A stretch of 64,000 nt of DNA, taken from positions 49,263-113,262 of the forward strand of contig JADGDU010000015.1 of NCBI GenBank assembly GCA_016744705.1, read 5' to 3'. Positions 3,759 through 57,100 of this stretch are shown in pieces (within the stretch, counting starts at the first letter, position 1; the number at the start of each line of letters is the position of its first letter). The notes below the pieces were generated by a model, which was not told the origin of the DNA, did not search any database, and saw only the letters and a program-made list of their open reading frames with translations. Origin of the DNA: Candidatus Krumholzibacteriia bacterium. GTDB lineage: Bacteria; Krumholzibacteriota; Krumholzibacteriia; LZORAL124-64-63. Made by a program: the position numbers and the translations under genes.

Positions 3759-3777
3759 AGGGTCTGGCCAGCGCTGA

Positions 3778-4854: not shown

Positions 4855-4858
4855 TTTC

Positions 4859-5713: not shown

Positions 5714-6660
5714 CAGACGTCAAAGTAGGCCGCGACCAAGTGCGCATTTCTGCCGACAAGGTGGGCAAATGGTTTGGCGAAGTCATCGCCGTCAACAATT
5801 GCTCTCTCAGTGTGGGAGCTGGGGTGGTGGGCCTGCTGGGTGCCAACGGCGCTGGCAAGAGTACCCTTTTCAAAATGCTGGCCGGTTTGATTGAACCCAG
5901 CCACGGGCGCGTCATGGTTCATGACCGCCGTCTGCGAGACGAGGTGGGATGGTTCCGCCAGGTGGGGTTTTGTCCCGAGAGCGATGCTTTGCCTGAATGG
6001 ATGACTGGCCAGGAGTTTCTCAGTCTGAGTCTGCGTCTCATGGGATTTGGCAAAGCGGAAGTGGATCAAAGAGTCAAATACTGGCTGGCTCGGTTTGAAT
6101 TGAGCGATGCCGCCGGCCGCCGCCTCGGTGGTTATAGCAAAGGCATGCGCCAGAAGGTCAAGTTGGCCCAGGCGTTGGCTCATGATCCAGAAGTCATCTT
6201 TCTGGATGAGCCCCTCAACGGTATGGATCCGGTATCCCGAAAGCACACCATTGACTTGGTGCGTGAGTTGGGTGTCTCAGGTCGCACAGTACTGGTTTCC
6301 AGTCACATTCTGCCAGAGGTGGAATCCATGACCAGTGACATCATTCTCATTGACCGGGGCAAGGTCCTGGCCGAGGGCAGTGTCACCGAAATCCGGGATA
6401 AGATCAGCGATCATCCCACCACTGTGGCCCTGGTGTCAGACACGGCCCGGGAGCTGGCGGGGTTCTTAATCAGCCGGCCTCATGTGGTCAGCGTGGAGTT
6501 GGAAGATGAAACGCGAGTGGTGGTGCGCACCGACCATGCCATGGATTTTTATAGGGCCCTGCCCCAGTGGATTTTGGAAAATAACCTGACCGTAGAAGAA
6601 ATCATCACCCTGGACGATAGCCTCGAAGCTGTCTTCCAGTACCTGACAGAGAATGGATGA
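5710..6660 (+). CDS. ABC transporter ATP-binding protein (second ATPase of the operon)
   Basis: Walker A 'GANGAGKST', signature 'YSKGMRQKV', Walker B 'IFLDEPLNGMD'. The start at ATG 5710 (MTDVKVG...) overlaps the upstream stop. Confidence 0.85.
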   Translation: MTDVKVGRDQVRISADKVGKWFGEVIAVNNCSLSVGAGVVGLLGANGAGKSTLFKMLAGLIEPSHGRVMVHDRRLRDEVGWFRQVGFCPESDALPEWMTGQEFLSLSLRLMGFGKAEVDQRVKYWLARFELSDAAGRRLGGYSKGMRQKVKLAQALAHDPEVIFLDEPLNGMDPVSRKHTIDLVRELGVSGRTVLVSSHILPEVESMTSDIILIDRGKVLAEGSVTEIRDKISDHPTTVALVSDTARELAGFLISRPHVVSVELEDETRVVVRTDHAMDFYRALPQWILENNLTVEEIITLDDSLEAVFQYLTENG

Positions 6661-11955: not shown

Positions 11956-11990
11956 AGCCCGGGCCGTCATCAGACGGCCCGGGCTTTTCT
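11956..11990 (+). terminator. Rho-independent terminator after the M16 pair
   Basis: gagcccgggccgtc-atcag-acggcccgggct followed by tttct. Confidence 0.55.
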
Positions 11991-12061
11991 TGTGGTGGGC
12001 TTTCCCCTCTTGTGATACGATGGTTTCATATTTTGAGGGACTGTTCAAAGAGGGGGATTTC

Positions 12062-15000
12062 ATGAACAGGCTGATTTTCGTGTGTGCAATTGCTTTGGCA
12101 ATGATCGCCTTTGCTGTCCAGCCCATTCTGGCCCAAGACCAGTTGGGCATTTTTTTTGATGAAGAGGGGAACAGCAACTCCATCACCACCAGCACACCTT
12201 ACAGTCAGGTTTCGGCTTGGGTGCAACTGGTGGATCCCACGGCTGCGGAGGCTATCACCGGCTTCGAATTCCGGCTGGAAATTGGCACCGATGGCCCTGA
12301 TCCGATCCTTGTTTGGCAACTGCCTGTCATGGCCATCAACATTTTGGAAGAACCTTCATTTATGGTGGGTTTGGGTTCACCCCTGGCCATCGCGCCACGA
12401 GTGACCCTGGCAGAGTTGAATATTGTTGTGCCAGAGGCGGGGCAAACTGTTTGGCTCACTTTGCACCCTGTAGATACACCTTCCATGCTGGAGCCTGAGG
12501 GTTACGGTTATCCCGTTTGCCATCCTGTCTATTCTTTTGGTGAGGACAATGACTACCTGGCGATGCCTTCCAATTCCTCTTGCGAGTCTGCCCCGGTGGC
12601 TTCTCTTAATCCATCCGGACAGGCACCGCAATATCAGCTTTCGGAATTGCCTCCGGTGGTTGCCATCGGGTTGGAAAATGAAGAAAAGGTCATTGGTTCG
12701 CTTATTCTGACAAACCATGGCCCCGTCAGTTATTCCGGTGTGGTGTCGTCTACCGGGAGCACCCCTGTTCAAATTAATCTGGATGATCATTATTTCACAT
12801 CAGATTCCATCTCCTTCCAGGTTCCCGTGGGCGAAAGCATTCGCATCACTCCTAATTACAGCGGGGCCGGCTTCCTTGATGCCGTCTTGCAATTGGAAAT
12901 CTGTGGAGATGTGTGGGAGGTCCTGGTCTTAAGCGACGATGATTTGAAGCGCTGCGAGTGGAGTCCTGAGTTATTGGAATTTGGGGAAGTTTTCCAGGGC
13001 ACACCCGTATCTATGGAGGTTGAGTTAAAAAATACGGGTTATGTCGACTTGGTCATCCCCTACCAATTGTGGCAAGGACAGTTCAGGCTTGTGCGTAGGG
13101 ATCACACTATTGAGTTCTTGGATCCGGGAGAATCCTGCACTTATGAAGTGAATTTTTCTGCGGCCCAGATGGGAGACTCAGGCACAGTATTCAGCATTGA
13201 AAACCTGTGTTTTCTGACTGTAACTGCTACGGTCATACCTGGTCCTGCCGAATGCTCGGTCTCTGTCTCGACATTGGATTTCGGCGATTTTTATCTCGGG
13301 CAAGCTGCCGATAGCGAATCCTTTTCCATCCGAAATGTTGGCGGTGGTATTCTGGATGGATCCCTTGCTTTGATCGATACCACCGGGGCCTTTCAGCTCA
13401 GCAGTTGGTGTGAAACCAGCTATTCTCTGGTTCATTCCCAGCCCCATAACATTGGGGTTGAGTTTAACCCTTCAGCGGTAGGGAACTATAGCGCGGAAAT
13501 CGATTTGGGTTCTAGCTGCGGTAGTATTCAAATCACCGGAACGGCCATTGAAAGTGAACCTGAATGCCTTCTGTATGGCTACCCATATGCGGACGGGGTT
13601 CTGCCAATGCGCGCCATTCCCGTTGGTGGGGAGCGATTCGAATTTTTCCGGATCCGAAATGTTGGTGGCGGGATTTTGGCAGGTGAAGTCACCCTGGAAG
13701 ATACGACTGGGCTTTTTGAAATTCGTAGCAGTTTGGATTACTCCCTGGCCCACAACGGTTACATTTATGTCAGTGTGACATTCACTCCTCAGGAGGTTGG
13801 AGTCGTCTCAACAATTTTGCACACCGGGTCCATTTGTGGAGATGTCTTGGTGGTTGGTGAGGGGCTGGAGTCTTATGAAGACTGTTATTCCAGAATGTAT
13901 GCCAGGGAGTTCAACCGAGTGGCGGTGGGTGATACGGCGTATACTTCCGTATTGATTTACAATATCGGTTATACCGAATTGCATGGCGACTTCACGGTGG
14001 ATGGGGACAGTTTCGAAATGGCAAATCCCGGACCGTTTAGTTTGCCGGTCAATGGCAGTCTCTATGAATCTCTTCTGTTCATACCCCAAGCTGTTGGGGA
14101 GTTTGATGCTACTGTTTCCACAGGGCTTGACAGTTGCCCCGGCCATTGGGATGTGACGGGTTTGGCTGTTCCCGCGGGATCGGATCGCCTGGGGTTCTAC
14201 ATGGATCCGGAAGGCACAACCAATATCCTGGATACCTCCACACCCAAGGTTCGGGAAACAGTTTATGTTGTTTTAAAAAATCCCAGTGTGGGAGAATCAT
14301 TGGACAGTTGGTACCTCAACCATTGGACCAATGGCCCCGCCCTGACCATGGACGATTGGAGCACCTCTTTGCCTGGGCAGATCGAAGGTTCCAGTTATTC
14401 CAAGCGTTTTGAGGCCGATACACCGGTGCTCTTTTCGGAAACCATGGTGTTGGCGGAATTCTCTCTGTTAGTTCATGATTATACCGAGGCCAGCAAGGTA
14501 TCCATGGGATATGCCTGCTACTATCATGAAGGGCCGTTCTCCAATCATGTGAGAATTAACGATCCGGGCGACCTCTATATCAATTTCGACAAAAGCATGT
14601 TGAGTAACCTTCCGGCCACACCTTTGGCTGAACTCACCGGCAGCGCCGTGCAAATGACCTGGCCCTGTTCCCACTCCAATTTTGAAGGCTTCCATGTGTA
14701 CCGGCGCCTCGAAGGCGAGGTGGCGGAAAAGATGACCACGGACCCGATTTCCTGCCAAGAGGGGGTTGCCAGGTACGAAGACAAAGGCTGGGTTGCTGCA
14801 TGGGGCCGTGCATTTTATTCAGTTACAGCAGTGCATCAGGGCAAAGAGGGGCTGCCAAGCGAAGAAGTGGTGGTGGAATTTTCTCCTCAGGAAGACGAAA
14901 GCGCCCTTCCCGAACGCACTCGTTTGCTGGCCATCTATCCCAATCCCTTCAACCCGGCCGCTCACATCTCTTTCGAATTGGATCAGCCCGGCCTGGTGCA

Positions 15001-15190
15001 AATTCAAATCTACGATGTGGGAGGACGCTTGGTCCGCAGCCTGACAAACCGGCAGTTTGAGGCTGGTCAGTCTGAAGAAATCTGGAATGGACGGGATGAC
15101 GCAGGAAGGTCTGTGCCCAGCAATGTGTATTATGCCAGGATGAGGGCAGGAGCCGTAGTGCAGATGCAGAAAATGACGCTGTTGAAATAG
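12062..15190 (+). CDS. Large secreted T9SS cargo protein with repeated choice-of-anchor-D-like domains and C-terminal T9SS sorting domain
   Basis: Signal peptide MNRLIFVCAIALAMIAFAVQPILAQ. Repeated 'IRNVGGGIL(D/A)G...TTG(A/L)F(Q/E)' modules. The C-terminus 'LLAIYPNPFNPAAHISFELDQPGLVQIQIYDVGGRLVRSL...' is a Por_secretion-tail type-A CTD. The N- and C-proximal segments are related (LGIFFDEEGNSNSITTSTP / LGFYMDPEGTTNILDTSTP). Confidence 0.75.
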   Translation: MNRLIFVCAIALAMIAFAVQPILAQDQLGIFFDEEGNSNSITTSTPYSQVSAWVQLVDPTAAEAITGFEFRLEIGTDGPDPILVWQLPVMAINILEEPSFMVGLGSPLAIAPRVTLAELNIVVPEAGQTVWLTLHPVDTPSMLEPEGYGYPVCHPVYSFGEDNDYLAMPSNSSCESAPVASLNPSGQAPQYQLSELPPVVAIGLENEEKVIGSLILTNHGPVSYSGVVSSTGSTPVQINLDDHYFTSDSISFQVPVGESIRITPNYSGAGFLDAVLQLEICGDVWEVLVLSDDDLKRCEWSPELLEFGEVFQGTPVSMEVELKNTGYVDLVIPYQLWQGQFRLVRRDHTIEFLDPGESCTYEVNFSAAQMGDSGTVFSIENLCFLTVTATVIPGPAECSVSVSTLDFGDFYLGQAADSESFSIRNVGGGILDGSLALIDTTGAFQLSSWCETSYSLVHSQPHNIGVEFNPSAVGNYSAEIDLGSSCGSIQITGTAIESEPECLLYGYPYADGVLPMRAIPVGGERFEFFRIRNVGGGILAGEVTLEDTTGLFEIRSSLDYSLAHNGYIYVSVTFTPQEVGVVSTILHTGSICGDVLVVGEGLESYEDCYSRMYAREFNRVAVGDTAYTSVLIYNIGYTELHGDFTVDGDSFEMANPGPFSLPVNGSLYESLLFIPQAVGEFDATVSTGLDSCPGHWDVTGLAVPAGSDRLGFYMDPEGTTNILDTSTPKVRETVYVVLKNPSVGESLDSWYLNHWTNGPALTMDDWSTSLPGQIEGSSYSKRFEADTPVLFSETMVLAEFSLLVHDYTEASKVSMGYACYYHEGPFSNHVRINDPGDLYINFDKSMLSNLPATPLAELTGSAVQMTWPCSHSNFEGFHVYRRLEGEVAEKMTTDPISCQEGVARYEDKGWVAAWGRAFYSVTAVHQGKEGLPSEEVVVEFSPQEDESALPERTRLLAIYPNPFNPAAHISFELDQPGLVQIQIYDVGGRLVRSLTNRQFEAGQSEEIWNGRDDAGRSVPSNVYYARMRAGAVVQMQKMTLLK

Positions 15191-16495: not shown

Positions 16496-19400
16496 ATGTC
16501 TTTGGAAGCTTACAGTCCTGATAACCATGTCCGCATCGTCACGGCCGCCAGCTTGTTCGACGGCCATGACGCCGCCATCAATATCATGCGCCGCATTCTC
16601 CAGGCCAGTGGGGTCGAGGTCATCCACCTCGGCCATAACCGCTCGGTCAAAGAAATCGTAGATTGCGCCATTCAGGAAGACGCCCAGGGCATCGCCATCA
16701 CCAGTTATCAGGGTGGGCATGTGGAGTATCTGAAGTACATGTTCGATTTGCTGAAAGAGGCTGGGGCCAACATCCGCATCTTTGCCGGTGGCGGGGGGAC
16801 CATCTTACCGGTGGAGATTGATGAGCTGCAGGAGTATGGCATTGCCCGTATTTTTTCTCCCGACGACGGACGCAGCCTGGGCCTGCAAGGCATGATCAAC
16901 GAAGTTTTGCAGCAGTGCGATTTTGCCGTGGGGGTAGAGCCCTCAACTGCGAACTTAGCTGAAGACGGTGATCTCGGCAGGCATTTGAAACAACTGGAAA
17001 GCCGCGATCCCCGGGCTCTGGGACGACTCATCTCTGTAGCCGAAAACCACCCCGATGCCGGGGATGATCTGATGGAGGCGGTGCAGACTGCCGGCGCAAA
17101 AATTGCGGATGGAAAAACCATTCCGGTGCTGGGCATCACTGGCACTGGTGGTGCAGGGAAAAGCTCTCTGGTGGACGAACTCGTGCGGCGTTTCCTGGAC
17201 GATTTCAAAGACAAGACCATCGCCATTGTTTCGGTGGATCCTTCCCGGCGCCGCAGCGGTGGGGCGTTGCTGGGTGACCGTATCCGTATGAATGCCATTG
17301 ATGACCCCCGGGTGTATATGCGTTCTCTGGCCACTCGTCAGTCAAATCTGGCTCTCTCTAAGTACGTGCGCCAGAGCATCGACATCTGCAAAGCCGCCAG
17401 CTTCGATCTGGTCATTGTAGAAACCAGTGGCATCGGCCAAAGCGATACCGAAATCACCGAACATTCAGATGTGGCTTTGTACGTGATGACTGCTGAATAC
17501 GGGGCGGCCACCCAGCTCGAAAAAATCGATATGCTGGACTTTGCCGACCTCATCGCCATCAACAAATTTGACCACCGGGGCAGCCTTGACGCCCTGCGGG
17601 ATGTGCGAAAGCAATACCGCCGCAACCACAATCTTTTCGAAGGCGATGATGAAAGTTTGCCTGTGCATGGCACCATCGCTTCCCAGTTCAACGACCCCGG
17701 CATGAACCAACTTTACTTGTCCATCATGGACAGTTTGGTGGAGCGCACCGGTGCTGATCTGAAGTCTGATTTCCAACTGACTGAAGCCATGAACAAACGG
17801 GCCTTTATCATCCCGCCCGAACGGAATCGCTACCTGGCAGAGATTCGCGACGACAACCATCGGTACAATGATTTTGTGGACCAGCAGTGCGCCATCGCCC
17901 GTCAGATGTTTCAATTGGATGGGACCATCAATCTGCTCCGGGAGAAGGCCGAGGATGAGCCCTCTTATTTGGGCGAGCTGCAGTCTCTTTACACTGAGTT
18001 GGAAGACCGCCTGGACCGGGACTGCCACAAGCAGTTGAAAAACTGGCCCCAGTTGGTGGAAGCCTACAAGGCCGACAAATTTGTATTCCAAGTTCGCAAC
18101 AAAACCATCGAGCAAGACCTGACGAGCACTTCTCTGAGCCACACACGCATTCCCAAAGTTTGCCTGCCCCGGTACGAAGACTGGGGCGACGTTCTGCGTT
18201 GGATTTTGACTGAAAACGTACCCGGATTTTTTCCTTATGCCGCAGGGGTTTTCCCACTCAAGCGCGAAGGCGAAGATCCCACTCGCATGTTTGCCGGCGA
18301 AGGTGGCCCTGAGCGCACCAACCGCAGGTTCCACTATGTGTCGCTGGGTATGCCTGCGGCGCGTCTTTCCACGGCCTTTGATTCGGTGACGCTTTACGGT
18401 GAAAACCCTGATCCTCGCCCGGATATTTACGGCAAAGTGGGCAACAGTGGCGTGAGCGTGGCCACTGTGGATGATGCCAAAAAGCTATATTCCGGTTTTG
18501 ATCTGGCAGACCCCAAAACCAGTGTTTCCATGACCATTAATGGACCTGCGCCTATGATGTTGGCCTTTTTTATGAATGCGGCCATCGATCAGGGATGTGA
18601 AAAACACATCATTGAAAACGGTATGCAGGCCGAGGTGGAAGCAAAGATTGAAGCCATTTACAAAGGCAGGAAACGCCCTACCTATCAAGGTGATTTGCCA
18701 GAAGGCAATAACGGCCTGGGGTTGATGCTTCTGGGTGTTAGTGGCGACCAGGTCCTGGATGCGGAGGTTTACCAGAAGATCAAAGCCGAAACTCTGTGCG
18801 CGGTGCGGGGAACCATTCAGGCGGACATCCTCAAAGAAGACCAGGCCCAGAACACCTGCATCTTCTCTACGGAATTTGCCCTGCGCATGATGGGTGATAT
18901 CCAACAGAACTTCATCGACAGTGGTGTGCGGAATTTCTACTCTGTTTCCATCAGCGGTTACCACATTGCCGAGGCCGGAGCCAATCCCATCAGCCAGCTG
19001 GCCTTCACCTTGGCCAACGGGTTCACCTTTGTGGAGTATTATCTTTCACGGGGCATGTCTATCGACAGCTTTGCGCCCAACCTTTCTTTCTTCTTCAGCA
19101 ACGGCATGGATCCTGAGTATTCAGTTATGGGCCGGGTGGCGCGCCGCATTTGGGCCAAGGCCATGAAGATGAAATACGGGGGCAACGAACGCAGCCAAAA
19201 ACTGAAGTACCATATCCAAACCAGTGGCCGCAGCTTGCACGCCCAGGAAATCGCCTTCAACGATATCCGCACCACGCTTCAGGCTCTGTACGCCATTTAC
19301 GACAACTGTAACAGCTTGCACACCAATGCCTATGATGAGGCCATCACCACGCCCACCGAAGAGAGTGTGCGCCGGGCTATGGCCATCCAGATGATCATCA

Positions 19401-19906
19401 ACAAGGAGTTGGGTCTGGCGCGGAACGAGAACCCATTGCAGGGTTCCTTCATCATCGAAGAACTGACCGACCTGGTGGAAGAAGCGGTGCTGACAGAATT
19501 TGCCAGCATCAGTGAGCGCGGCGGTGTGTTGGGGGCCATGGAACGCATGTACCAGCGCACGAAAATCCAGGAAGAATCCCTGCATTATGAGTCCCTGAAA
19601 CATTCGGGAGAGATGCCCATCATTGGGGTCAACACGTATCTTGATCCGGCTGGTTCACCGACCATCATTCCCAGTGAAGTGATCCGCTCCACGGAGACCG
19701 AGAAACAGTATTCCATTGAGTCGCTCAATGCCTTCCATGAGCGCAATGCCGGTCAGGCTTCGGAAGCATTGGCCAAGTTGCGGCAGGTTGCGGTGGAACA
19801 TGGCAATACTTTTGAAGCCATGATGGAGACTTCCAAAACTTGTTCCATGGGGCAAATATCCCGGGCTCTTTATGGAGTGGGCGGGCAATATCGCCGGAAT
19901 ATGTAG
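16496..19906 (+). CDS. icmF: Fused isobutyryl-CoA mutase IcmF (N-terminal B12-binding domain + MeaB-like G-protein + methylmalonyl-CoA-mutase-like catalytic domain)
   Basis: The N-terminus '[19 protein letters not shown]...' is a B12-binding DxHxxG-type domain. The P-loop '[17 protein letters not shown]' is MeaB/ArgK-like. The C-terminal ~550 aa carry mutase TIM-barrel motifs. The 1136-aa length fits IcmF. Confidence 0.8.
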
Positions 19907-26233: not shown

Positions 26234-26806
26234 TCAGTTGCCGCGGCTGCCGGGTTTGACCACTTCCTGGCCATCTTTGCACAGAGGACATTCTTCCGGT
26301 TTCCAGGTTTGCACCACAACCTTGGCCAGGGAATTTAAAGGCAGAGGCAGGCCGGCGTCGCCACCGGTGCGGTCGATGATGCTGGTGACGCCCACGACCT
26401 TGCCGCCGGCTTTCTCCACACATTCGATCACTTCCAGGACGCTGGTTCCCCGGGTCACCACATCTTCGGCGATGATAACTTTTTCGCCTTCTTCAATGGC
26501 AAAGCCGCGGCGGATCTGCATCACGCCATCAACCCGTTCGGTGAATACAAAACGGCGGCCACTGGCCCTGGCCACTTCGTGCCCGATGAGGATGCCGCCC
26601 ATGGCGGGGCTGACCACCAGATCGCAGGGCGTGTCTTTGAAGAAACCGGCCATGGCTGCGCCCAGTTCTTTGGCCAGTTCGGGAAACTGTAAGATGCGGG
26701 CGCACTGAAAATAGCGATCACTGTGCAGGCCGCTGCTGAGAAGGAAGTGGCCTGAGTGCAGGGCTCCCAGTTCTTCCATCAAATTCAGGACTTTATCTTC
26801 GGTCAT
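26234..26806 (-). CDS. pyrE: Orotate phosphoribosyltransferase
   Basis: PRPP-binding motif 'VIIAEDVVTRGTS'; overall PyrE-like 190 aa. Confidence 0.85.
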   Translation of the reverse strand: MTEDKVLNLMEELGALHSGHFLLSSGLHSDRYFQCARILQFPELAKELGAAMAGFFKDTPCDLVVSPAMGGILIGHEVARASGRRFVFTERVDGVMQIRRGFAIEEGEKVIIAEDVVTRGTSVLEVIECVEKAGGKVVGVTSIIDRTGGDAGLPLPLNSLAKVVVQTWKPEECPLCKDGQEVVKPGSRGN

Positions 26807-30243: not shown

Positions 30244-31809
30244 TTGGCGTATAAAATTTTATGGATCGATGATCATATAGAAGAGCTTCGCTCGCACACC
30301 ATGTACCTGGGTGAGAAGGGGTACGAGGTGGAAGGAGTGACCAACGGCATGGATGGCCTGGCCATGCTCCGGGAACAAAATTTCGAAGCCATTTTGTTGG
30401 ATGAAATGATGCCTGGTATGGGTGGATTGGAAACCCTGGAAGGCATCCGGAAGATCGATCCGAACATTCCGGTGATCATGGTCACCAAAAGCGAAGCCGA
30501 AGATTTGATGACCCGGGCCATCGGCAAGCGCATTGACGATTACCTGGTTAAGCCGGTCAGTCCGATCCAGGTGTTGTCTGCCCTGAAGCGCCAGGTGGAA
30601 GCGCGCAAGCTGACCGGTGAAGAAGTCACCCGCGACTACATGAGCAACTTCATGGCAGTGACCGACCGCATTGCCCTGGCCAAGAGCCCTGCCGATTGGG
30701 AGGGCATTTATTCCGATCTCGTCACCTGGGGCATGGACCTTTTTCAGTACAGTGATCATGGGTTGCTGGAGACCCAGGGTGAACAATTGATGGCCGCTAA
30801 TTTGGCCTTTGGTAAATATGTAAGGGAGAATTATCACAGTTGGATTCACGCTAACCCAGAAACATCCGGCAAGGATATCCCTCTGTTCAGCCCCCGTGTC
30901 TATGAAGAACTCATTGAGCCGGAAGTCCAGCGCAGCCGGCAGGTTTTCTGGATCACCATCGATTGCATGCGTTTGGATCAGGTGCGAATGATAGAGCCGC
31001 TTCTGGAACCCTATTTCCACATCAATCGCCAGCATTACTGGTCCATGCTGCCTACGGCCACGCCCTATGCACGCAATGCCTTGTTTGCTGGGATGTATCC
31101 CGAGGATATTGCCAAAAACTATCCCAAATGGTGGTTGGATGGGCATCACGAAGGCAGCCGCAATGCTTACGAAGGAGAACTGCTGAACGAGCAGCTCAAT
31201 CGTATTGGCAGCGCTGCTTCCGGCAGTTGTAAATATTATAAGATTGCCGATGAACGGGATGTGGATCCTTTGCACCGGAACCTGGGCAGCATGGGTGATA
31301 CGCGTCTGGTGGCTGCTGTTTATAACTTCCTTGATATCATGGCCCATGGCCGCAGTCAGAACCGGATTTTGAAAGAGCTGGCGCCAAATGAAGCGGCCTT
31401 CCGGACCCTCATGCGCACCTGGTTCGAACACTCGAACCTTTTTGATATTCTCAAGAGTTTGTCCCGGCGCGATTGCACGGTGATTTTAACCACCGACCAC
31501 GGGTCCATGTTTTGCCGCCGCAGCATGAAAATCAGGGGCAATCGCGATACCAGCAGTAACGTGCGCTACAAATTTGGCGACAACCTGGGCACCGACGATG
31601 AACGCATCCTGTTGATGAAAAAACCTGGTGATTTCCGTTTGCCGGCCCATTCTTCCATTGAGAATTACGCCGTCACTTCAGAGAATTTCTATTTGGTGTA
31701 TCCCACGAATTTCCACGAGTACGAACGCCTGTACCGAGACAGTTTCCAACATGGAGGCATCAGCGTCGAAGAGATGATCTGTCCCTTTGTGACCCTGAGG
31801 CCGAGGTGA
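30244..31809 (+). CDS. Response regulator with REC domain fused to PglZ (alkaline-phosphatase-superfamily) domain; PorX-like
   Basis: The REC domain is 'ILWIDDH...LLDEMMPGMGG...VIMVTKS' with the phospho-Asp in 'LLDEMMPG'. The C-terminal ~380 aa carry 'ITIDCMRLDQ' and 'LTTDHGS' metal-site motifs of PglZ. The 521-aa size is the same as P. gingivalis PorX. Confidence 0.7.
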   Translation: MAYKILWIDDHIEELRSHTMYLGEKGYEVEGVTNGMDGLAMLREQNFEAILLDEMMPGMGGLETLEGIRKIDPNIPVIMVTKSEAEDLMTRAIGKRIDDYLVKPVSPIQVLSALKRQVEARKLTGEEVTRDYMSNFMAVTDRIALAKSPADWEGIYSDLVTWGMDLFQYSDHGLLETQGEQLMAANLAFGKYVRENYHSWIHANPETSGKDIPLFSPRVYEELIEPEVQRSRQVFWITIDCMRLDQVRMIEPLLEPYFHINRQHYWSMLPTATPYARNALFAGMYPEDIAKNYPKWWLDGHHEGSRNAYEGELLNEQLNRIGSAASGSCKYYKIADERDVDPLHRNLGSMGDTRLVAAVYNFLDIMAHGRSQNRILKELAPNEAAFRTLMRTWFEHSNLFDILKSLSRRDCTVILTTDHGSMFCRRSMKIRGNRDTSSNVRYKFGDNLGTDDERILLMKKPGDFRLPAHSSIENYAVTSENFYLVYPTNFHEYERLYRDSFQHGGISVEEMICPFVTLRPR

Positions 31810-41187: not shown

Positions 41188-41481
41188 ATGAATAAAACAG
41201 AACTCACCGACAAACTGGCTAAGCAAACGGGAATGTCCAAAGCAGATTCCAAGCGGGCTATTGACGCAATCTTTTCCACCGCACCGCGGGAGGGAATCAT
41301 TGCCAGCGCCGTGTCTAAGGGTGACCGAGTCCAAATTACTGGTTTCGGAACGTTCGAACGACGCAAGCGTAAAAAACGCAATGGTCGCAATCCCCAAACT
41401 GGTGAAACCATCGTGATCGCCGCAGCAAAATACCCTGCTTTCGTGGCGGGCAAAAGCTTGAAGGAACGAATCCAGAAGTAG
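41188..41481 (+). CDS. hup: DNA-binding protein HU
   Basis: MNKTELTDKLAKQTGMSKADSKRAIDAIF...ITGFGTFERRKR...GRNPQTGETI is canonical HU/IHF. Confidence 0.9.
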   Translation: MNKTELTDKLAKQTGMSKADSKRAIDAIFSTAPREGIIASAVSKGDRVQITGFGTFERRKRKKRNGRNPQTGETIVIAAAKYPAFVAGKSLKERIQK

Positions 41482-41507: not shown

Positions 41508-41541
41508 ATGAGACGAGAAAGGGTGGTGTTGACCGCCCTTT
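41508..41541 (+). terminator. Rho-independent terminator after hup
   Basis: gaaagggtgg-tgttga-ccgccctttc followed by tttttttt. Confidence 0.7.
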
Positions 41542-41565
41542 CTTTTTTTTGTAATTCCTGACAGT

Positions 41566-41594
41566 TGCCCTGCTCAGGTTGAGCATTTATAATA
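41566..41594 (+). promoter_or_regulatory. Near-consensus sigma70-like promoter (TTGCCC -17 nt- TATAAT) upstream of the phosphatase-like/cytochrome gene
   Basis: ttgccc tgctcaggttgagcatt tataat, located ~95 nt upstream of ATG 41687. Confidence 0.4.
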
Positions 41595-41686
41595 CTCAGT
41601 GGGAACTTACTGCCGCCGATGGTATTGGATCATGAGTCCTGTGCCCGCGTGGCATTATTAACAGATTTCATGGGAAAGGTTTGGAT

Positions 41687-43060
41687 ATGATCAAGCTTAA
41701 GGGTTTGTCGGGCCTATTGGGTCTGGCGACATTAGCCCTGTTGTTGCTCTCAGTGGCCTCTGGGCCAGGAGAAAGCACTGACGGCACTGTTTTTGCTGCC
41801 GAAGGCGGAAATTGGAAAAACGTCACGGTGTTGTACTTAAACGACGTGAAGGGGAAAATAGAACCCTGTGGCTGAAAGTCTAAGCAGCGTGGCGGGGTTG
41901 CCCGGAGGGCGACCTACTTTGACTCTGTTTGGAATGAAGACGTGCCTGTTCTCATGGTCGACGGCGGTGACCTTTTTGGTCGCCGTAATAGAAACGAACA
42001 GCACCAGACCCGTTTCCTGTGTGAATGCACAGCTGATTTCGGATACGATGGCATCGGCCTTGGTGAGGCCGACCTGAACTATGGTCTGCCATTTTTGATG
42101 GAAATGATTGAGAAATACGATTTGCCTTTCACCAATGCGAACGTGGTCAACCGGGAGACGGGCGAACTGATCCTTCCCGAATACCTGGTTGTGGAGAAAA
42201 ATGGCGTCAAATTTGGTTTGGTCAGTGTGCTGGGTGAAAACTATAAAATTATCACCATGACGGACACCGACAGCGGACTGGATGTTAAGGACCCTGTGGC
42301 TACTTTGCGTGCCTTGCTGCCTCGCATGCGTGAGGAAGTGGATACCGTAGTCTTGCTGGGGCATTTGGGTGAAGGCAATACCGACACGGTGCTGCGTGAG
42401 GTCAAGGGTATCGATGTCTGTGTCATGGGACACTCTCATCGTACTTTGAAAAACGAACGCATCGTGGAAGATACGATTGTACTGGGTGCGCCCCACGAAG
42501 GTCGTTATGTGGGCCGGGCCAATATCTTCATCGAAGAGTCTGACGGCAGAGTCATGGCTGTGGATGTGGAATTGACCAGTCTGGATGATGCTGTGGAACA
42601 CGAGCCAGATATGTATGCCCGGGTTCAGGATTATCATGCCAGTTTCGAAGAATTTAAGCTGGCCAAGCGAGCGGCCTTTCCCAGAGATTTGGGATCTGAA
42701 AAAGAAACATATCTGGGTGCCCGGTCCTGTAAAAGCTGCCATGAGGATACTTGGGAAGCCTATACGGCCTCCTCTCATAGCCAGGCTTACACGACCATCC
42801 GGAAAAAGGGTCAAAACAACGAGCCGGAATGCATTCTTTGTCATACCACGGGGTACCGCTACCAAAACGGGTATTCTGAAGAGCGTCCTTTCAACCAACT
42901 GGTGAATGTGCAGTGTGAATCCTGTCACGGCTACGGCACTGAGCACTCCAGAGATGGCAAATGGCGGGCTCAGGCTCAGGATGCCTGTATCACATGTCAC
43001 GACCAGGAAAACAGTCCCGAGTTTGATTACACTACTTATTGGGAAAAAATCAAACACTAG
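41687..43060 (+). CDS. Secreted fusion: degenerate 5'-nucleotidase/calcineurin-like metallophosphatase domain + C-terminal tetra-haem cytochrome c. The single reading frame is interrupted by an in-frame TGA at 41873-41875 (selenocysteine candidate or disruption)
   Basis: The signal peptide MIKLKGLSGLLGLATLALLLLSVASG is followed by 'VTVLYLNDVKGKIEPCG-TGA-KSKQRGGVARRATYFDSVWNEDVPVLMVDGGDLFG', which is collinear with the 5'-NT 'HTNDxHGxLEP...GGxARxAT...DAGD'. The ORF-track entries 41681 and 41942 are in the same frame. A 'GHSH' motif is retained. The C-terminus has 4x CxxCH (CKSCH, CILCH, CESCH, CITCH). Confidence 0.55.
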
Positions 43061-43081: not shown

Positions 43082-43921
43082 TTGAAAACAAAACTCACTC
43101 CAGGGAACGGTCGACCATTGTTGTCGGCCGTTCCTTTCATGGGGGCTTTAGCTCTCGTATTAATGATTCTGCCGGCTGCTCCAGCAGTGGCTCTGGACCT
43201 GTTCACTTTGTGGCGGCAACCAGAGATCCCCCTGCGCTTGGAAGAGGGCAGTTGGGTCGATTACCGCAGCCAGGTTATGGCCGGCGGACGCAGGGAAGAA
43301 GGCCTCACCCGAGTCTCCTGCCTGACGAAGGCCGATGGTTCTGATGAAGATACTTTTCTTTTAGAAATATTGCCTTTGCAGGAACCGGAAGATCGCGTCC
43401 TGATGCCCATACCAGGCCAGGGTGCCCAGGTCCGTGTATCGCGTGATGTGTTAAAACGGGAGGGTGCATTGATGGCGGCTATTGTCTCGGTGCACCATTG
43501 GCAGGACGGCGTCTCTCAGGAGATCACTCCTGAAGAGTTGCGGGACGACCCCATGATTTCCACCACCTTTACCAGTGACTTTGTACCAGATGAAGTGAGC
43601 AACCAGCAATCCACCACCCGGATTGTAAGGGGGCACCAGATGGTTTGCCGCCAGTGGGTCCTGGCCAGTGCCGACACCCAGAGTGTCGTGATGCCCGCGG
43701 GGAACATGAATCAAATCTCCACTCGGGAAATTGCTGCCGCGGTGAATGAAGAGGTTCCCTTTTTGGGTTTGGCTTACGCTTCAGAGCGGGTGCGCTCAGT
43801 TTCCTCTCTCGATCCTCCAAATAAAAGGATACCAGTGCCCCCTGCCCGAATTCGGGTGGAAGTGATGGAATTGGTCGGGTTTGGCTTTGATGCAGTGCCT
43901 CATCTTACGGGTGGGGATTGA
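43082..43921 (+). CDS. Secreted hypothetical protein
   Basis: The ORF is 279 aa. The likely start is at the ATG giving MGALALVLMILPAAPAVA (signal peptide). No recognised domain. Confidence 0.35.
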   Translation: MKTKLTPGNGRPLLSAVPFMGALALVLMILPAAPAVALDLFTLWRQPEIPLRLEEGSWVDYRSQVMAGGRREEGLTRVSCLTKADGSDEDTFLLEILPLQEPEDRVLMPIPGQGAQVRVSRDVLKREGALMAAIVSVHHWQDGVSQEITPEELRDDPMISTTFTSDFVPDEVSNQQSTTRIVRGHQMVCRQWVLASADTQSVVMPAGNMNQISTREIAAAVNEEVPFLGLAYASERVRSVSSLDPPNKRIPVPPARIRVEVMELVGFGFDAVPHLTGGD

Positions 43922-44962: not shown

Positions 44963-45142
44963 ATGATCAGCGTCAAAGAAGATGGTTTGCTTGTAAGAGA
45001 TGAAAGTTTCGTGAAATACCGGCGCTTGCTTCGCCGGGCCGAGGACGAGGGTCGCATTGATGGTCCCTGCAAGTGCTTGGTTTGTGGTATGCGTTATCTC
45101 ACCAAAGATGAATCAGAAGCTTGCTGCCGCATCAATTCCTGA
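44963..45142 (+). CDS. Small (59 aa) Cys-rich protein (CxC...CxxC...CC), possible zinc-ribbon
   Basis: An AAGGAGG RBS lies 5 nt upstream of the ATG. The product is MISVKEDGLLVRDESFVKYRRLLRRAEDEGRIDGPCKCLVCGMRYLTKDESEACCRINS. It is absent from the ORF track (below 60 aa). Confidence 0.4.
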   Translation: MISVKEDGLLVRDESFVKYRRLLRRAEDEGRIDGPCKCLVCGMRYLTKDESEACCRINS

Positions 45143-45854
45143 CCCACATCTGAAGCGATATGGTTCGCCAATCGGAGTTGCTTTGAAGTCCCGACAGTTT
45201 TGTTCCGTCTGTAAGGAATGGCTGGATATGGAAGTCGTCCCTACCAATGATGGGGACGACGATGATGGTGTTGTCTGGTATCGCTGTCCGCAGTGCCAGG
45301 GGTTCTTGCCAAAGCTGAAGGGTGCCACCGAATCCGAAGAGAAGCCTCAGAAGGCTGAGACGGCGGATACCCCGGCTGAGCCTACGGCCCCTGAAGCCGA
45401 TCGCTGGGACAGCCCTGCCGCCATGATGCAGGATTTGAAAGATTCTCCCGCTTCCGCCTTTTCCATGCAGGAATCATCAGATGAACCAGATTCTGATGAC
45501 GATGTTCTGGTGGGTACGGTTAAGGCAGATACGCCGGAACCGAAGACCGAGCCTGTGGTTGAAGATCCACCTGAAGTTCAGGAAGATATAGAACCGGTCA
45601 AAGAAGACGAGCCTGCCAAGGATGTGGAACCCGTCCTGGAATATGCCGCCATGTTGGCCGAACTGGATGTGACCGAGGCGGCACCCTACCGACCCTGGGC
45701 AACCTATGAGGTGGGGCAATGCATCAATCATCTGGCCTGGAACGATTGCGGAGTGGTGGTAGCCAAGGAAGATCTTCCCGGCGGCCGCAAAATTATCAAA
45801 TGTTACTTCGAAGAAGCGGGCGTGGTGCGCTTGATCGAAAAGGCTCCTCGTTGA
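45057..45854 (+). CDS. Hypothetical protein: N-terminal zinc ribbon (CSVC...CPQC), acidic low-complexity linker, conserved C-terminal domain
   Basis: The ORF-track start at 45057 overlaps the small Cys-rich ORF in another frame. The true start is probably downstream (e.g. TTG ~45175), but must precede 'CSVCKEW' if the ribbon is intact. The D/E/P-rich linker is 'DEPDSDDDVLVGT...EPVKEDEPAKDVEPV'. Confidence 0.45.
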   Translation: MMVPASAWFVVCVISPKMNQKLAAASIPDPHLKRYGSPIGVALKSRQFCSVCKEWLDMEVVPTNDGDDDDGVVWYRCPQCQGFLPKLKGATESEEKPQKAETADTPAEPTAPEADRWDSPAAMMQDLKDSPASAFSMQESSDEPDSDDDVLVGTVKADTPEPKTEPVVEDPPEVQEDIEPVKEDEPAKDVEPVLEYAAMLAELDVTEAAPYRPWATYEVGQCINHLAWNDCGVVVAKEDLPGGRKIIKCYFEEAGVVRLIEKAPR

Positions 45855-46747
45855 GCCGGCTTTTGCGTCTGGGGATCACTGTTCTCGGGGCGCTGCTCCT
45901 ATTAACTGTCGTATTGACGGACCCTCTCCATGCCCAGATGCTTTATCTGGATGATATGCCTTTTTCCACCCCCGCCGATTCCACTTCCCGTCTGGCCTTA
46001 AAAGCCGACTTCAGCCGTTTCGAAGACCAAAAATTCAACTGGTCTGTGAACCGCCTTTTGATAAGCATCATGCTGCCCGCCGGTGAGGAGGGCTCGTTTT
46101 TTATACGCATGCCTTTCACCTCCTTTGATACGGGGAACGTAGGGCTCTTTTCCCGCTGGCCATGGGTCCAGGGAATCTCCGAGGATGAAGGGTGGCCCAA
46201 CGGCCAGCGCATCACCAGCTTGGGGCAACCGGAAATTGGAGCCACTGGGCCCACCGGTTTTTCTTTTCTGCCGCAATGGTATTACAGCGTTGCCTTGGGT
46301 TTGCCTGTGGGGACCGATCGTCTCTACCCCTTCGGGTCCGTCAGCATGCCTTTGCGGTTGGAGATGAGGAAAATCATTCCCTGGGGAGCCAGCAAACAGA
46401 TCGGCCTGACTGTGGGCTCACTGATCAATATGCAATCGGCCAAAGACTATCTGGATGGCGAAGAGGCCTTCCCCAGTGGGCCCCATGTGGGCGGCGTGCT
46501 GAACTGGTTTCAGGGCCGGGGTTCGCGTTTGACCTTGTCATACGATTTTTACAGTAAAAATGGCCGGAAGTCTCAAATATTGGGAGTGGAGGCCTGGACA
46601 TCCTGGACCGATGACGGTTCGGTGGGGTTTAAGGTTGCCAGAGAATTACAAGGTTCCCTGGACCGTCCCGCAGCTTGGTATTTCACCATCTCGTTCCGTC
46701 TGGATAGCAACTCCCTCAGACCTTCCCAGGAAATTATTGCTCCCTGA
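45851..46747 (+). CDS. Secreted, probably outer-membrane beta-barrel-like hypothetical protein
   Basis: The TTG at 45851 (overlapping the upstream stop) gives MSRLLRLGITVLGALLLLTVVLTDPLHA|QMLYLD, a signal peptide. The body has alternating-hydrophobic beta-strand patterns (LTLSYDFY, WYFTISFRL). Confidence 0.4.
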   Translation: MSRLLRLGITVLGALLLLTVVLTDPLHAQMLYLDDMPFSTPADSTSRLALKADFSRFEDQKFNWSVNRLLISIMLPAGEEGSFFIRMPFTSFDTGNVGLFSRWPWVQGISEDEGWPNGQRITSLGQPEIGATGPTGFSFLPQWYYSVALGLPVGTDRLYPFGSVSMPLRLEMRKIIPWGASKQIGLTVGSLINMQSAKDYLDGEEAFPSGPHVGGVLNWFQGRGSRLTLSYDFYSKNGRKSQILGVEAWTSWTDDGSVGFKVARELQGSLDRPAAWYFTISFRLDSNSLRPSQEIIAP

Positions 46748-54148: not shown

Positions 54149-57100
54149 ATGCGGAAAGTGCTGTTTTTGGTTTGGGTGATTGTTCTGACGGTGGGGTCTG
54201 CCTCCGGGGCCACCGCTGGATGGATCAGTTTCGACAAACAGGAAATGGCATTCCCCCAGATCCAGGCCAGGCGACAATCTGAGAGTCTCACTGTCGTGGA
54301 TATCACCATGAGCGGCCTGGAAAGCAATGTCGTGATGGTCCAGGGGCAACCCCATGATCAGATTCGCATTCCCGGGCATTGGTTCACTCTGGAAGCAGGT
54401 CAGCCGGAACTTCCTTTCATCACCAGCAGCCTGGTCATTGCCGACAGTGGCAATCCGGTGGTGCGGGTGCTCAATAGCACCTGGCGGGAAATTTCTGCTC
54501 ATCCGGTTCTCCCATCCAAGGGTTCTATTCTGCGCACGGAAGATCCGGCCACAGTGCCTTACGCTTTTGGTGCTGTTTATCAAAGCAGGGATGTCTTTCC
54601 CGCATCTGAGGTCCAACTGAACGAACCATACATCATGCGTGACGTGCGAGGCGTGAGTTTGCGCATCAACGCCGTGCGCTGGGATGTGGAGCGGGGCGTC
54701 TTGCTGGCCTTGGAAAGCATGACCCTGGAAGTGGAAACTTCCGGTGCGGGGGGAATCAACTCTCGGCAGGGAAAAATGCAGAGTGGCATCGACACCCAGT
54801 TCGCCCAACTTTATAATCAGGCTTTTGACAATTACGAGAACCCCGCCAAATACAACATGGTGGCCGTTGATGGCCGCATGCTGGTAGTGTGCCACGATTC
54901 CTTTTTGGGCACCATTGATCCCTTTGTGCAATGGAAGCGTTCCACCGGCATAGATGTGCAGGTCATCAGCACTGGTAGTGTAGGGGGAACCTCCCTGGGT
55001 ATCCAGAGCGCCATCGATTCTCTGTATGCCGAACCAGAAGGATTGACTTATGTGATTCTAGTGGGAGATCAAGCTCAAGTGCCCTCCTACACCGGAACCT
55101 TCGAAGGCGCTGATGACGATACTCGCTATGGCAATATCGAAGGTGATGACCTTTATCCAGACCTCTTCGTGAGCCGCATCTCGGGCTCCAACCCGGTGGA
55201 TATTCAAACCCAGATCAACAAATTTATTCGTTATGAACGGGATCCTGATGCTGGTGCCGATTGGTATCATCTCGGGGCGGTGTTAGCCTCCAGCCAGGGC
55301 GACCCCTCGGACTCTGAGCGTGCCGGTTGGTTGCGCGATGACATGTTGAATTACACCTTCACTCAGGTGCACGAAGTTTTTCAGCCCGAAGGTGATACCG
55401 CTGATATTACCGACGCCGTCAATGGCGGAGTCAGTCTGATCAATTATCTCGGCCATGGCTCGGGCACGTCCTGGACCAATCCCCACTTTACGCAGGCCGA
55501 TATCAATGCCCTGAGCAATGGATGGCAGAACCCCTGGATTTTGGACGTGAGCTGTTCCAACGGAGACTTCTCCACCGACGAATGTTTTGCCGAAGCCTGG
55601 ATGCGTGCCGGTGACCCGGCCCAGCCCCAGGGAGCTTTGGCCACTTACAGCGCATCCACCACAACGCCCTGGATTCCCCCCTGTGTGATGCAGGCTGAAG
55701 CAGTGGATCTGATGGTGGCGAACCAGGCCACGGTGTTGGGCTCTCTGTATTTTCACGGCATCATGAAGGTGATGGACGTATACCCGGGCAATAGCCAACT
55801 GGTGGAACAGTACAATGTTTTTGGCGATTGTTCGTTGCAGATTCGCACCAATACACCAGTGGTGCCGGCGATGCAGTATGACGATGTACTGGCCCTGGAG
55901 GCCACGGTGTTTCCCGTGGATACAGGTCTTGAAAATTGTCGGGTGGCTTTGTACAGCGGGCAGCAATTGCACGGTGTGGGCGTAACCGATGCGCAGGGTC
56001 ATGTGGACATTTCCCTGACCAACCCAGTGACTGTTCCCGGCCCGGTGAGTATGACGGTAACAGGGTACAATGTATTGACCCAGGTCCTCACTCTGCAAGC
56101 GGAAGTCCCCGTGGTGGTGGACATTCAGCCGTCCTCAATTCCCGTGGGTCAGACTACGGATATAACGGTGACTTTGTCAGATTCACCAGCCCTGGCTTCC
56201 CTGGAAAATGTGACGGTTACGGTGGAAGGTTTTGGTGTGCAAGCTGTGCAGGGGCTCACCGGTGTTGACGGTGTGGCTACCATCAGTGTGACTCCTGAAT
56301 TTGGCGAAAATTTGACTGTGCGGGGCGTGGAGTTCGGCGCCGGATATGACATGTTCAGCGTAGATTTGGGCGTCAGCGGTGCCTTGGATCTGACCCAGGC
56401 AAATATAGTTGCTGAAGTGGCTGCCATCGGTATGATCGATACCCTGACTCCGGATTGGGAAGGCACCATTACTGGTACCAGCGATGTGGCTGATTTCGAC
56501 ATTAAAATCAAGGGGCCCGGCCTGGATGTTCTGGCCAGGGGATCTGGATACTCCCTGGTGCAAAATGTGACTCCGCTGGGCACGGGTGTGGTTTATGCCA
56601 CCTTGCTGAAAACCGGTTACAACATCTATCAATCGGAAATCCAAGTGATTCCTGCCTATGGAACCCTCGGGGGATCGATCACGGCTTCTGGTGGAGCAAC
56701 TCTTGATGGAGTGCGCGTTTTTGGATTCCACACGGGAGATGATCCCCAGGGAGAACCAGTCTTTGATCTGGTCAGCGATGCCACCGGCGAATTCAGCAAT
56801 CCGGTCCAACTGCCTTCCGGAAGTTACGATTTGTATGCCCGTAAATACGGGTATTTGGATTATGCCGAAACCTTTGTGCTGGAGCACGGGGCCAATGACC
56901 ATGATGTGGTCATGGACCTCTCTCCAGTGGGAGTTCTTACCGGACAAATTTCAGCTCTTGAAGGTGGTGCGGCCATCAATGCCACCATCCAGGTTATCCG
57001 CCTGGATAACAACGACCAAATGGCCTTGGTGATGACCGACGAACTGGGGCGATACACCTGTCCGGAATTGCCTTTTTATGACTACCGGATGATTGTGACC

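Follow-up and report, generated by a model that had tools for sequence, protein, structure and literature searches.

A family of UshA-like proteins ("COG0737, UshA-like") with the motif CxU was described among the major selenoprotein families of the Global Ocean Sampling (GOS) metagenomes (Zhang & Gladyshev 2008, PMC2398784). It also appears in the later reviews PMC13188914, together with the profile NF041198, and PMC9312934, with no function reported. Here, we describe a gene which very probably codes for a further member of this family, made as one exported selenoprotein whose selenocysteine (Sec) is encoded by an in-frame TGA. The gene lies at positions 41687-43060 of a stretch of 64,000 nt (assembly GCA_016744705.1, contig JADGDU010000015.1, positions 49,263 to 113,262 of the forward strand) from a Candidatus Krumholzibacteriia bacterium. 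This whole stretch is called the window in the following.

The NF041198 family and the window gene have in common a PCGU motif after metallophosphoesterase motif I, an UshA-like N-domain followed by a C-terminal multihaem region, and the alternation of Sec and Cys at one site. The window gene differs from the profile by the absence of about 90 positions (272-364) between the two domains. Other described systems resemble single parts of the protein. Its N-terminal metallophosphoesterase fold is common to UshA, CD73 and the 5'-nucleotidase of T. thermophilus (PDB 1ush, 4h2i and 2z1a). SoxB (PDB 2wdc), a periplasmic sulfur redox enzyme, belongs to the same fold family, and the cytochrome c554 of Nitrosomonas (PF13435; PDB 1bvb) likewise has a tetrahaem c-type domain. 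At the RNA level, the closest likeness is to the selenocysteine insertion sequence (SECIS) of the E. coli fdhF type, a stem-loop situated directly 3' of the UGA within the coding sequence. The literature search returned no paper on the combination of multihaem, selenocysteine and nucleotidase, and nothing relevant on Krumholzibacteria and selenocysteine. The family is already catalogued and is biochemically uncharacterised; the window gene adds a member to it.

One reading frame on both sides of a TGA codon

A preliminary description of the window had noticed two pieces of open reading frame (ORF) lying in the same frame and parted only by a TGA. This observation was confirmed by the sequence, the ORF list (pieces 41681-41875 and 41942-43060) and the translation of 41681-43060, in which the region 41687-43060 of the forward strand forms a single frame with TGA 41873-41875 as its sole internal stop. 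The TGA is flanked by ...LYLNDVKGKIEPCG on the 5' side and by KSKQRGGVARRATYF... on the 3' side. The likely start is the ATG at 41687, directly preceded by GGGAAAGG, and the frame opened there closes at the TAG at 43058-43060. The following features belong to the gene itself:

41687-43060, + strand: gene of the proposed selenoprotein, 457 codons and a TAG stop (sequence, translation and NF041198 match)
41687-41761, + strand: signal peptide of the Sec secretion type (MIKLKGLSGLLGLATLALLLLSVAS), read from the sequence, its cleavage site being inferred
41864-41875, + strand: motif P60-C61-G62-U63 (translation and orthologue alignment)
41873-41875, + strand: UGA codon of residue 63, predicted to encode selenocysteine (aligned codons in 78 loci)

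On the 5' side of the TGA, the protein thus consists of the signal peptide followed by ...VTVLYLNDVKGKIEPCG; on the 3' side it continues with KSKQRGGVARRATYFDSVWNEDVPVLMVDGGDLFG... and carries four CXXCH motifs toward its end. The position of the signal peptide upstream of the TGA, already pointed out in the preliminary description, was read in the window and its counterpart is present in every orthologue, where a hydrophobic leader of the signal or lipoprotein type precedes the TGA in the same frame.

An antisense ORF of 406 residues (41837-43057, - strand) covers nearly the whole gene; rather than a gene, it is a shadow ORF that accompanies the GC-rich coding strand.

Family membership and domain architecture

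When residue 63 was entered as Cys, the whole protein matched the NCBIfam profile NF041198 ("UshA_like_PCGU, UshA-like (seleno)protein") with 279.4 bits (E = 5.1e-83), the curated cut-off being 275 bits. The N-terminal half by itself gave 165 bits over profile positions 19-272, and the C-terminal 158 residues by themselves gave 109.5 bits over positions 364-519. Since both halves match the profile separately, the cytochrome "fusion" corresponds to the known architecture of the family and is no new fusion. The preliminary description had not recognised this known selenoprotein family (UshA-like, CxU; PMC2398784, NF041198). The two domains are placed as follows:

41807-42547, + strand: UshA/5'-nucleotidase-like metallophosphoesterase N-domain, residues 41-287 (Pfam, NCBIfam, alignment to 2z1a, fold matches)
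42707-43057, + strand: cytochrome c554-like tetrahaem domain, residues ~341-457 (PF13435, NF041198, PDB 1bvb)

Analysis with Pfam placed Metallophos over residues 53-252, spanning the TGA, and Cytochrome_C554 (PF13435) over residues 347-415, the latter with 53.3 bits against a cut-off of 20.8. The four predicted CXXCH haem sites are all present (CKSCH, CILCH, CESCH and CITCH, at 42728-42742, 42830-42844, 42914-42928 and 42986-43000), and the tetrahaem domain matched PDB 1bvb with E = 2.9e-6. The best sequence match of the N-domain was PDB 2z1a (phmmer, E = 2.7e-12, residues 39-254). The PCGU motif stands just after metallophosphoesterase motif I (...NDVKGKIEPCG-TGA-K), P-C-G-U being located 7-10 residues past the motif-I Asp, in the beta1-alpha1 loop.

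Homology to 5'-nucleotidases is therefore found on both sides of the TGA (Metallophos 53-252, 2z1a 39-254), as had been proposed. The homology, the NF041198 match and the same-frame conservation reported below all cross the TGA, which bears out the earlier view that the functional unit spans the stop.

Conservation of the TGA codon

The protein search returned 300 homologues. Nearly all of them are recorded as proteins of 368-387 residues which span just 79-85% of the query, so the gene callers began them 3' of the TGA. Essentially all of these ~300 database entries therefore stand as N-terminally truncated records without the signal peptide and the Cys-x-Sec motif, under the names "multiheme c-type cytochrome" or "2',3'-cyclic-nucleotide 2'-phosphodiesterase". 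A full-length homologue with Cys at the site, P0052 (458 residues), reads ...KIEECGCKGHPRGGLARRA..., with EECGCK at the site.

From species-representative genomes, 80 loci were retrieved, mostly in metagenome-assembled genomes (MAGs) of Candidatus Krumholzibacteriia/-ota, the remainder coming from a few Eisenbacteria, Glassbacteria, Brocadiaceae and Syntrophaceae. The codon at the site was read from tblastn alignments; 3 loci cut off by contig ends were left out. In this alignment, for which the preliminary description had called, the codon aligned to the window TGA was TGA in 74/78 loci and TGC or TGT (Cys) in 4/78. Such a recurrence of TGA at one codon is far beyond chance. Cys is the sole alternative residue at site 63 among the homologues; the four Cys loci (L071, L076, L078 and L080, from Krumholzibacteriia and Brocadiaceae MAGs) read (R/E)(S/P)CGC. 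Among the tabulated loci, P60 was conserved in 75/77, C61 in 77/77 and G62 in 77/77, site 63 being TGA in 73 and Cys in 4. All four CXXCH motifs were kept in the 75/75 loci that cover them.

Furthermore, nucleotide variability at the first, second and third codon positions was 0.316, 0.159 and 0.455 upstream of the TGA, and 0.344, 0.214 and 0.525 downstream of it. As variability follows the order third > first > second position on both sides, both sides are coding sequence in one frame.

These data bear on the possibility that two genes are present, namely a 62-residue secreted peptide ending at the TGA and an independently initiated cytochrome of 368-372 residues. Gene callers annotate the region in this way in ~300 database entries, the 62-residue leader being called as a separate small ORF (on the locus L001, the calls are 3488-3676 and 3755-4861), and an in-frame GTG (41942) and ATG (41954) are available as starts. 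However, the downstream ORF would be without a signal peptide though its four c-type haem sites need export. From the TGA to GTG 41942, 22 codons show conservation at the protein level, and their translation matches helix alpha-1 of the 5'-nucleotidases (GGVARRA). The alignment of the upstream piece with this fold covers strand beta-1 and motif I, and the Cys homologues are continuous ORFs. Two separate genes are, in our judgement, extremely improbable.

A recent nonsense mutation, leaving a pseudogene from which only the 62-residue N-terminal fragment or nothing is made, would account for the single in-frame TGA that splits the ORF, and it would agree with the fact that no sel genes were seen in the window. 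Such a recent lesion cannot be common to a phylum, whereas the same TGA stands at the same codon in 74/78 orthologous loci of different species, with purifying selection on both of its flanks and a conserved SECIS after it. Nor are the 74 loci copies of one contaminant: at the protein level, the related loci are 29-87% identical to the window. We give this explanation hardly any credence.

An error of assembly or base calling which turned TGC or TGT into TGA might be suspected, given that the source is a metagenome-assembled contig and that Cys homologues with TGC/TGT exist. Against this, the TGA recurs in L001, an independent scaffold in the ENA from the same organism or population, and in 74 independent assemblies from other projects. 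In addition, the SECIS-specific synonymous codons described below (GCC CGG AGG) accompany TGA and not TGC/TGT. An error is accordingly about as improbable as a lesion.

The comparative results on the TGA and its flanks thus lead us to set aside a recent nonsense mutation, a base-calling error and a pair of genes. The preliminary description had left selenocysteine, pseudogene and error side by side, uncommitted; of these, selenocysteine is supported, and the other two are excluded by the TGA in 74 other genomes.

A SECIS-like hairpin downstream of the TGA

Folding of the 63 nt starting at the UGA gave a minimum free energy (MFE) of -28 kcal/mol with z = -3.6, and 0/200 shuffled sequences folded as well. 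The predicted element comprises:

41879-41933, + strand: whole predicted SECIS stem-loop including the lower helix (GUCUAAGCAG.../...CUGUUUGGA), from folding; the covariation evidence concerns the upper helix only
41895-41915, + strand: predicted SECIS upper helix and apical loop, GGGGUUGCC-GGA-GGGCGACCU (fold, pair counts and covariation)

The upper helix has 9 bp, from G23-U43 to C31-G35 in the numbering of the folded segment, and closes the loop G32-G33-A34, which starts 28 nt after the UGA. Published criteria for bacterial SECIS (bSECIS) elements are a loop of 3-9 nt, an upper stem of 4-16 bp, at least one G in the first two loop positions, a UGA-to-loop distance of 16-37 nt and an MFE <= -7.5 kcal/mol (PMC13188914). 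The window hairpin lies within every one of these limits, with a loop of 3 nt (GGA), a stem of 9 bp, GG at the loop start, a distance of 28 nt and -28 kcal/mol for the whole element. For the hairpin segment alone, the median MFE in the 74 sequences with TGA at the site (Sec sequences below) was -14.1 kcal/mol. Like the fdhF type, the window element combines a GC-rich upper helix with a small apical loop that begins with GG, at a spacing inside 16-37 nt; it differs in its loop, GGA or GGC (3 nt) versus GGUC, and in its distance from the UGA, 28 nt versus ~18 nt.

The hairpin region could be aligned without gaps in 68 sequences. In this alignment, 89.9% of the cells were paired, versus <=57% when the 3' partner was slid by 1-3 columns, and 35 cells were changed on both sides of the helix, a level reached by 0/500 shuffles. 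Pair 27-39 was GC in 44 sequences, GU in 14, UG in 5, AU in 3 and CG in 1; pair 24-42 was GC in 47, AU in 7, CG in 2 and UG in 1. These two informative covarying pairs join third-codon positions, that is, the compensatory changes occur at synonymous sites. Pair 25-41 was mismatched in 35 sequences (GG-U-UGGCCC...GGGCCACC), where the fold leaves a single unpaired U. The fdhF SECIS of E. coli (GGUUGCAGGUCUGCACC) has a bulged U17, which the unpaired U of the orthologues resembles.

In 70/74 Sec sequences, the helix is formed in the window register with 5 bp or more. The examination of the region 3' of the TGA, which had also been called for, showed a hairpin within the published bSECIS limits. 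The in-register loop triplet, counted in all 74 Sec sequences, was GGA in 53, GGC in 18, GAC in 2 and GGG in 1, with G as first base in 74/74. The other four sequences have shifted hairpins with loops starting GGUCU, GGUCUG or GGC. Three Sec forms without the in-register GGA/GGC hairpin (L041 3091-3150, L054 3076-3135 and L072 1515-1574) carry a hairpin displaced toward the UGA, with a loop GGUCU or GGUCUG, similar to that of fdhF. These shifted hairpins are an alternative SECIS solution inside one family.

The choice of codons follows the same pattern. The Ala-Arg-Arg codons are GCC-CGG-[A/C]GG in 67 Sec sequences, and CGG-[A/C]GG occurs in 70/74. The four Cys forms, in which the Arg pairs of the GG.(A/G/S)RR stretch are CGA-CGG, CGC-CGC, CGC-CGA and CGC-CGG, have no SECIS-like helix and are a natural negative control for it. 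Third-position variability was 0.308 in the hairpin codons versus 0.455-0.525 in the flanking codons.

The preliminary description had judged the downstream hairpin too weak to be called a SECIS. This judgement does not stand: the hairpin considered there, cggg/cccg, mis-pairs the 5' arm of the real helix with itself, and the real helix GGGGUUGCC/GGGCGACCU has 9 bp, agrees with the bSECIS criteria and covaries.

From the established bacterial mechanism and the comparative signature, we infer SelB-dependent decoding at the UGA. The mRNA just 3' of the UGA would fold into the bacterial SECIS hairpin (upper helix 41895-41915). By analogy with the established mechanism, the hairpin would recruit the SelB-GTP-Sec-tRNA(Sec) complex to the A site, and the ribosome would read UGA 41873-41875 as selenocysteine.

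Genetic code and points that weigh against selenocysteine

The 43 long ORFs of the window end at TGA in 21 cases, at TAG in 11 and at TAA in 11. The pyrE gene (26234-26806, - strand) and the ABC ATPases (3778-4854 and 5650-6660) end at TGA, as the preliminary description had argued when it held a UGA-sense code to be unlikely, and give full-length profile matches. Because TGA is the commonest stop and ORFs end where their family profiles end, the code is the standard one, with UGA recoded at one site. No credible candidate for a second gene with an in-frame TGA was found in the 64-kb window.

These results concern the possibility that the UGA is read as a standard amino acid (Trp, Cys or Gly), through a reassigned code or through suppression independent of a SECIS. 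Some uncultivated lineages do reassign UGA, and no Sec machinery was found in the window or in the 81 fetched loci. But more ORFs of the window end at TGA (21/43) than at either of the other stops, with ORFs ending where the family profiles end, and the 64 kb hold no other in-frame TGA candidate. Moreover, only Cys alternates at the site, which is the signature of Sec/Cys pairs, and the UGA is followed by a hairpin of the SelB type under selection, whose loop begins with GG and has the canonical spacing. We therefore hold a standard amino acid at this site to be very unlikely, if slightly less so than a lesion, an error or a pair of genes.

Several observations weigh against selenocysteine in a known family. 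Concerning the machinery, no selA, selB or selD was found in the 64-kb window (NCBIfam on 41/43 long ORFs, Pfam only for the last two) or in the 81 fetched loci, and ARAGORN found no tRNA, hence no tRNA-Sec, in the window or in these 81 loci. As for the hairpin, it overlaps the conserved peptide GG(L/V)ARRA, and part of its conservation is therefore driven by the protein. RNAalifold, applied to the 68-sequence alignment, missed it and gave only an alternative helix of 3 bp; for this reason, the named structure was tested directly by pair counts, slide controls and per-sequence folds. Rfam gave nothing at gathering thresholds in the window and only chance-level matches (E >= 0.75) around the TGA. 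The NF041198 score is barely over its cut-off, a borderline value due to the ~90 profile positions (272-364) which are unmatched between the domains. Finally, the neighbours of the gene are inconsistent in distant phyla, where a C25 peptidase, GH57, a pyridoxal phosphate-dependent Cys/Met enzyme, an AhpC/TSA redoxin or a polyferredoxin is found.

With these points taken into account, we remain highly confident that the TGA encodes selenocysteine and that the gene gives one exported selenoprotein of the UshA-like family. The observation made in the preliminary description is thus confirmed, and its interpretation is partly supported.

A degenerate phosphoesterase domain joined to four haem sites

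The AlphaFold model of the Cys homologue P0052 matched CD73 and UshA with Foldseek E values of ~1e-19 to 1e-20; SoxB and YfkN were also matched. The window protein aligns with the 5'-nucleotidases along strand beta-1, motif I (ND..), the helix GGVARRA, GGD, H226 and GH249. In the alignment with 2z1a, the DxH motif corresponds to D53-V-K55, with Lys55 in place of the motif-I His, and GNHEFD corresponds to G126-E127-A128-D129-L130-N131, in which the bridging Asn has become Glu127 and the catalytic His Ala128. H226 and H249 are retained. Among the orthologues, R, Q, A, K, Y, W and other residues occupy the hypervariable position of the catalytic His (128), K55 and H251 are variable, and D95, E127, H226 and H249 are just 78-91% conserved. 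The nucleotide-binding C-domain PF02872 (5_nucleotid_C) gave no match at E <= 0.1, residues 341-457 being Cytochrome_C554 instead; the tetrahaem domain thus stands in the place of PF02872.

Having lost three active-site residues (motif-I His, bridging Asn and catalytic His) along with the nucleotide-binding C-domain, the protein is no nucleotidase. Assignment as an active 5'-nucleotidase/UshA (COG0737) was rejected, the dimetal ligand set and the Asp-His dyad being incomplete and PF02872 absent. With its catalytic residues decayed, PF02872 absent and PF13435 present, the protein deserves the label of tetrahaem "pseudo-5'-nucleotidase" under which it had first been described.

SoxB (TIGR04486) was likewise considered and rejected (67.2 bits against a cut-off of 550). 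Its likeness to the window protein consists of this weak profile match and of the fold match; it differs in having neither Sec nor haems, and its dimanganese ligand set is not retained in the window protein. No sox genes were found near the window gene. In contrast to cytochrome c554 of Nitrosomonas, the tetrahaem domain of the window protein is C-terminal and fused to a domain of the catalytic type, and so is no free carrier; it has no link to hydroxylamine oxidation.

The elements which are invariant across the loci are C-G-U, with P nearly so, and the four haem sites. On this pattern of conservation, we tentatively suggest that the protein may be a periplasmic redox enzyme in which a Cys61/Sec63 centre exchanges electrons with the tetrahaem domain, a suggestion toward which we are close to evenly disposed, with doubt slightly ahead. 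The partner of the four haems in this electron transfer would be either a selenenylsulfide formed by Cys61 and Sec63 or a centre ligated by Cys and Sec. SoxB, which is related in fold, suggests by analogy a sulfur or selenium compound as substrate, but this is no more than a guess. It must be set against this suggestion that, in the AlphaFold model of P0052, the N-domain is confident, but the CGC loop has a predicted local distance difference test score (pLDDT) < 50 and the haem domain one of ~55. As the loop and the haem domain are unreliable in the model, no geometry backs the redox proposal.

Genomic context

The surroundings of the gene hold the following features:

41515-41552, + strand: terminator-like hairpin and T-run of the intrinsic type, a 13-bp stem followed by TTTTTTGT (hairpin 41515-41544)
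41565-41593, + strand: candidate sigma-70-like promoter, TTGCCC-17-TATAAT (consensus match only)
43082-43921, + strand: secreted protein of 279 residues with an N-terminal hydrophobic leader, starting 22 nt past the stop of the proposed selenoprotein gene

The terminator-like hairpin 41515-41544 ends the upstream HU gene (41188-41481) and sets the 5' boundary of the transcription unit; HU was recognised by a Pfam Bac_DNA_binding match in L001, where the locus is identical. The candidate promoter at 41565-41593 is consistent with transcription starting 5' of ATG 41687 instead of at the internal GTG/ATG chosen by gene callers. In Krumholzibacteria, the order HU, selenoprotein, 279-residue secreted hypothetical protein and DEDD exonuclease is kept, these neighbours being present in 52, 61 and 61 loci, respectively. 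The gene of the 279-residue protein lies directly downstream of the selenoprotein gene in 61 related loci, and its product has no Pfam or NCBIfam match. It may be a co-transcribed or operon partner, a relation which is inseparable from phylum-wide synteny.

Further downstream, two conserved hypothetical ORFs without family matches (45057-45854 and 45719-46747, both on the + strand) overlap by 136 nt in different frames. They are syntenic in many related loci, and the second probably begins further downstream than its ORF suggests. Two tandem giant proteins of 1562 and 1586 residues (54149-58837 and 59098-63858, + strand) both carry a peptidase C25 (gingipain-like) propeptide and catalytic domain, CarboxypepD_reg, a P-domain and FlgD-Ig-like C-termini; in the locus L070, a C25 peptidase lies directly downstream of the selenoprotein homologue. 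The window also codes for a PorX-type response regulator of the type IX secretion system (T9SS; 30244-31809, + strand, 618 bits) and for a protein of 1066 residues with a choice-of-anchor D domain and a T9SS-type C-terminus (11990-15190, + strand). A type IX secretion system is apparently present in the organism. The gene at 16496-19906 (+ strand) codes for IcmF, a fused isobutyryl-CoA mutase/GTPase, and scores 1771 bits where the equivalog cut-off is 1500.

Significance

The arrangement of UGA and SECIS is canonical and brings no new recoding principle. A Sec codon in this gene would imply the use of selenocysteine by this uncultivated lineage. On account of the truncated records, functional and localisation predictions are wrong for a near-universal protein of Krumholzibacteria. 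The interest of the finding rests on this systematic mis-annotation across public MAGs and on the uncharacterised chemistry of the family. Judging from the conserved residues, the family may be an uncharacterised class of periplasmic selenoenzymes, in which a decayed metallophosphoesterase scaffold carries an invariant Cys-Gly-Sec wired to four haems for haem-coupled redox chemistry, possibly on a sulfur or selenium substrate; we advance this idea with more reserve than conviction. The decayed dimetal site, the invariant C-G-U and the four haems make the protein a reasonable target for characterisation.

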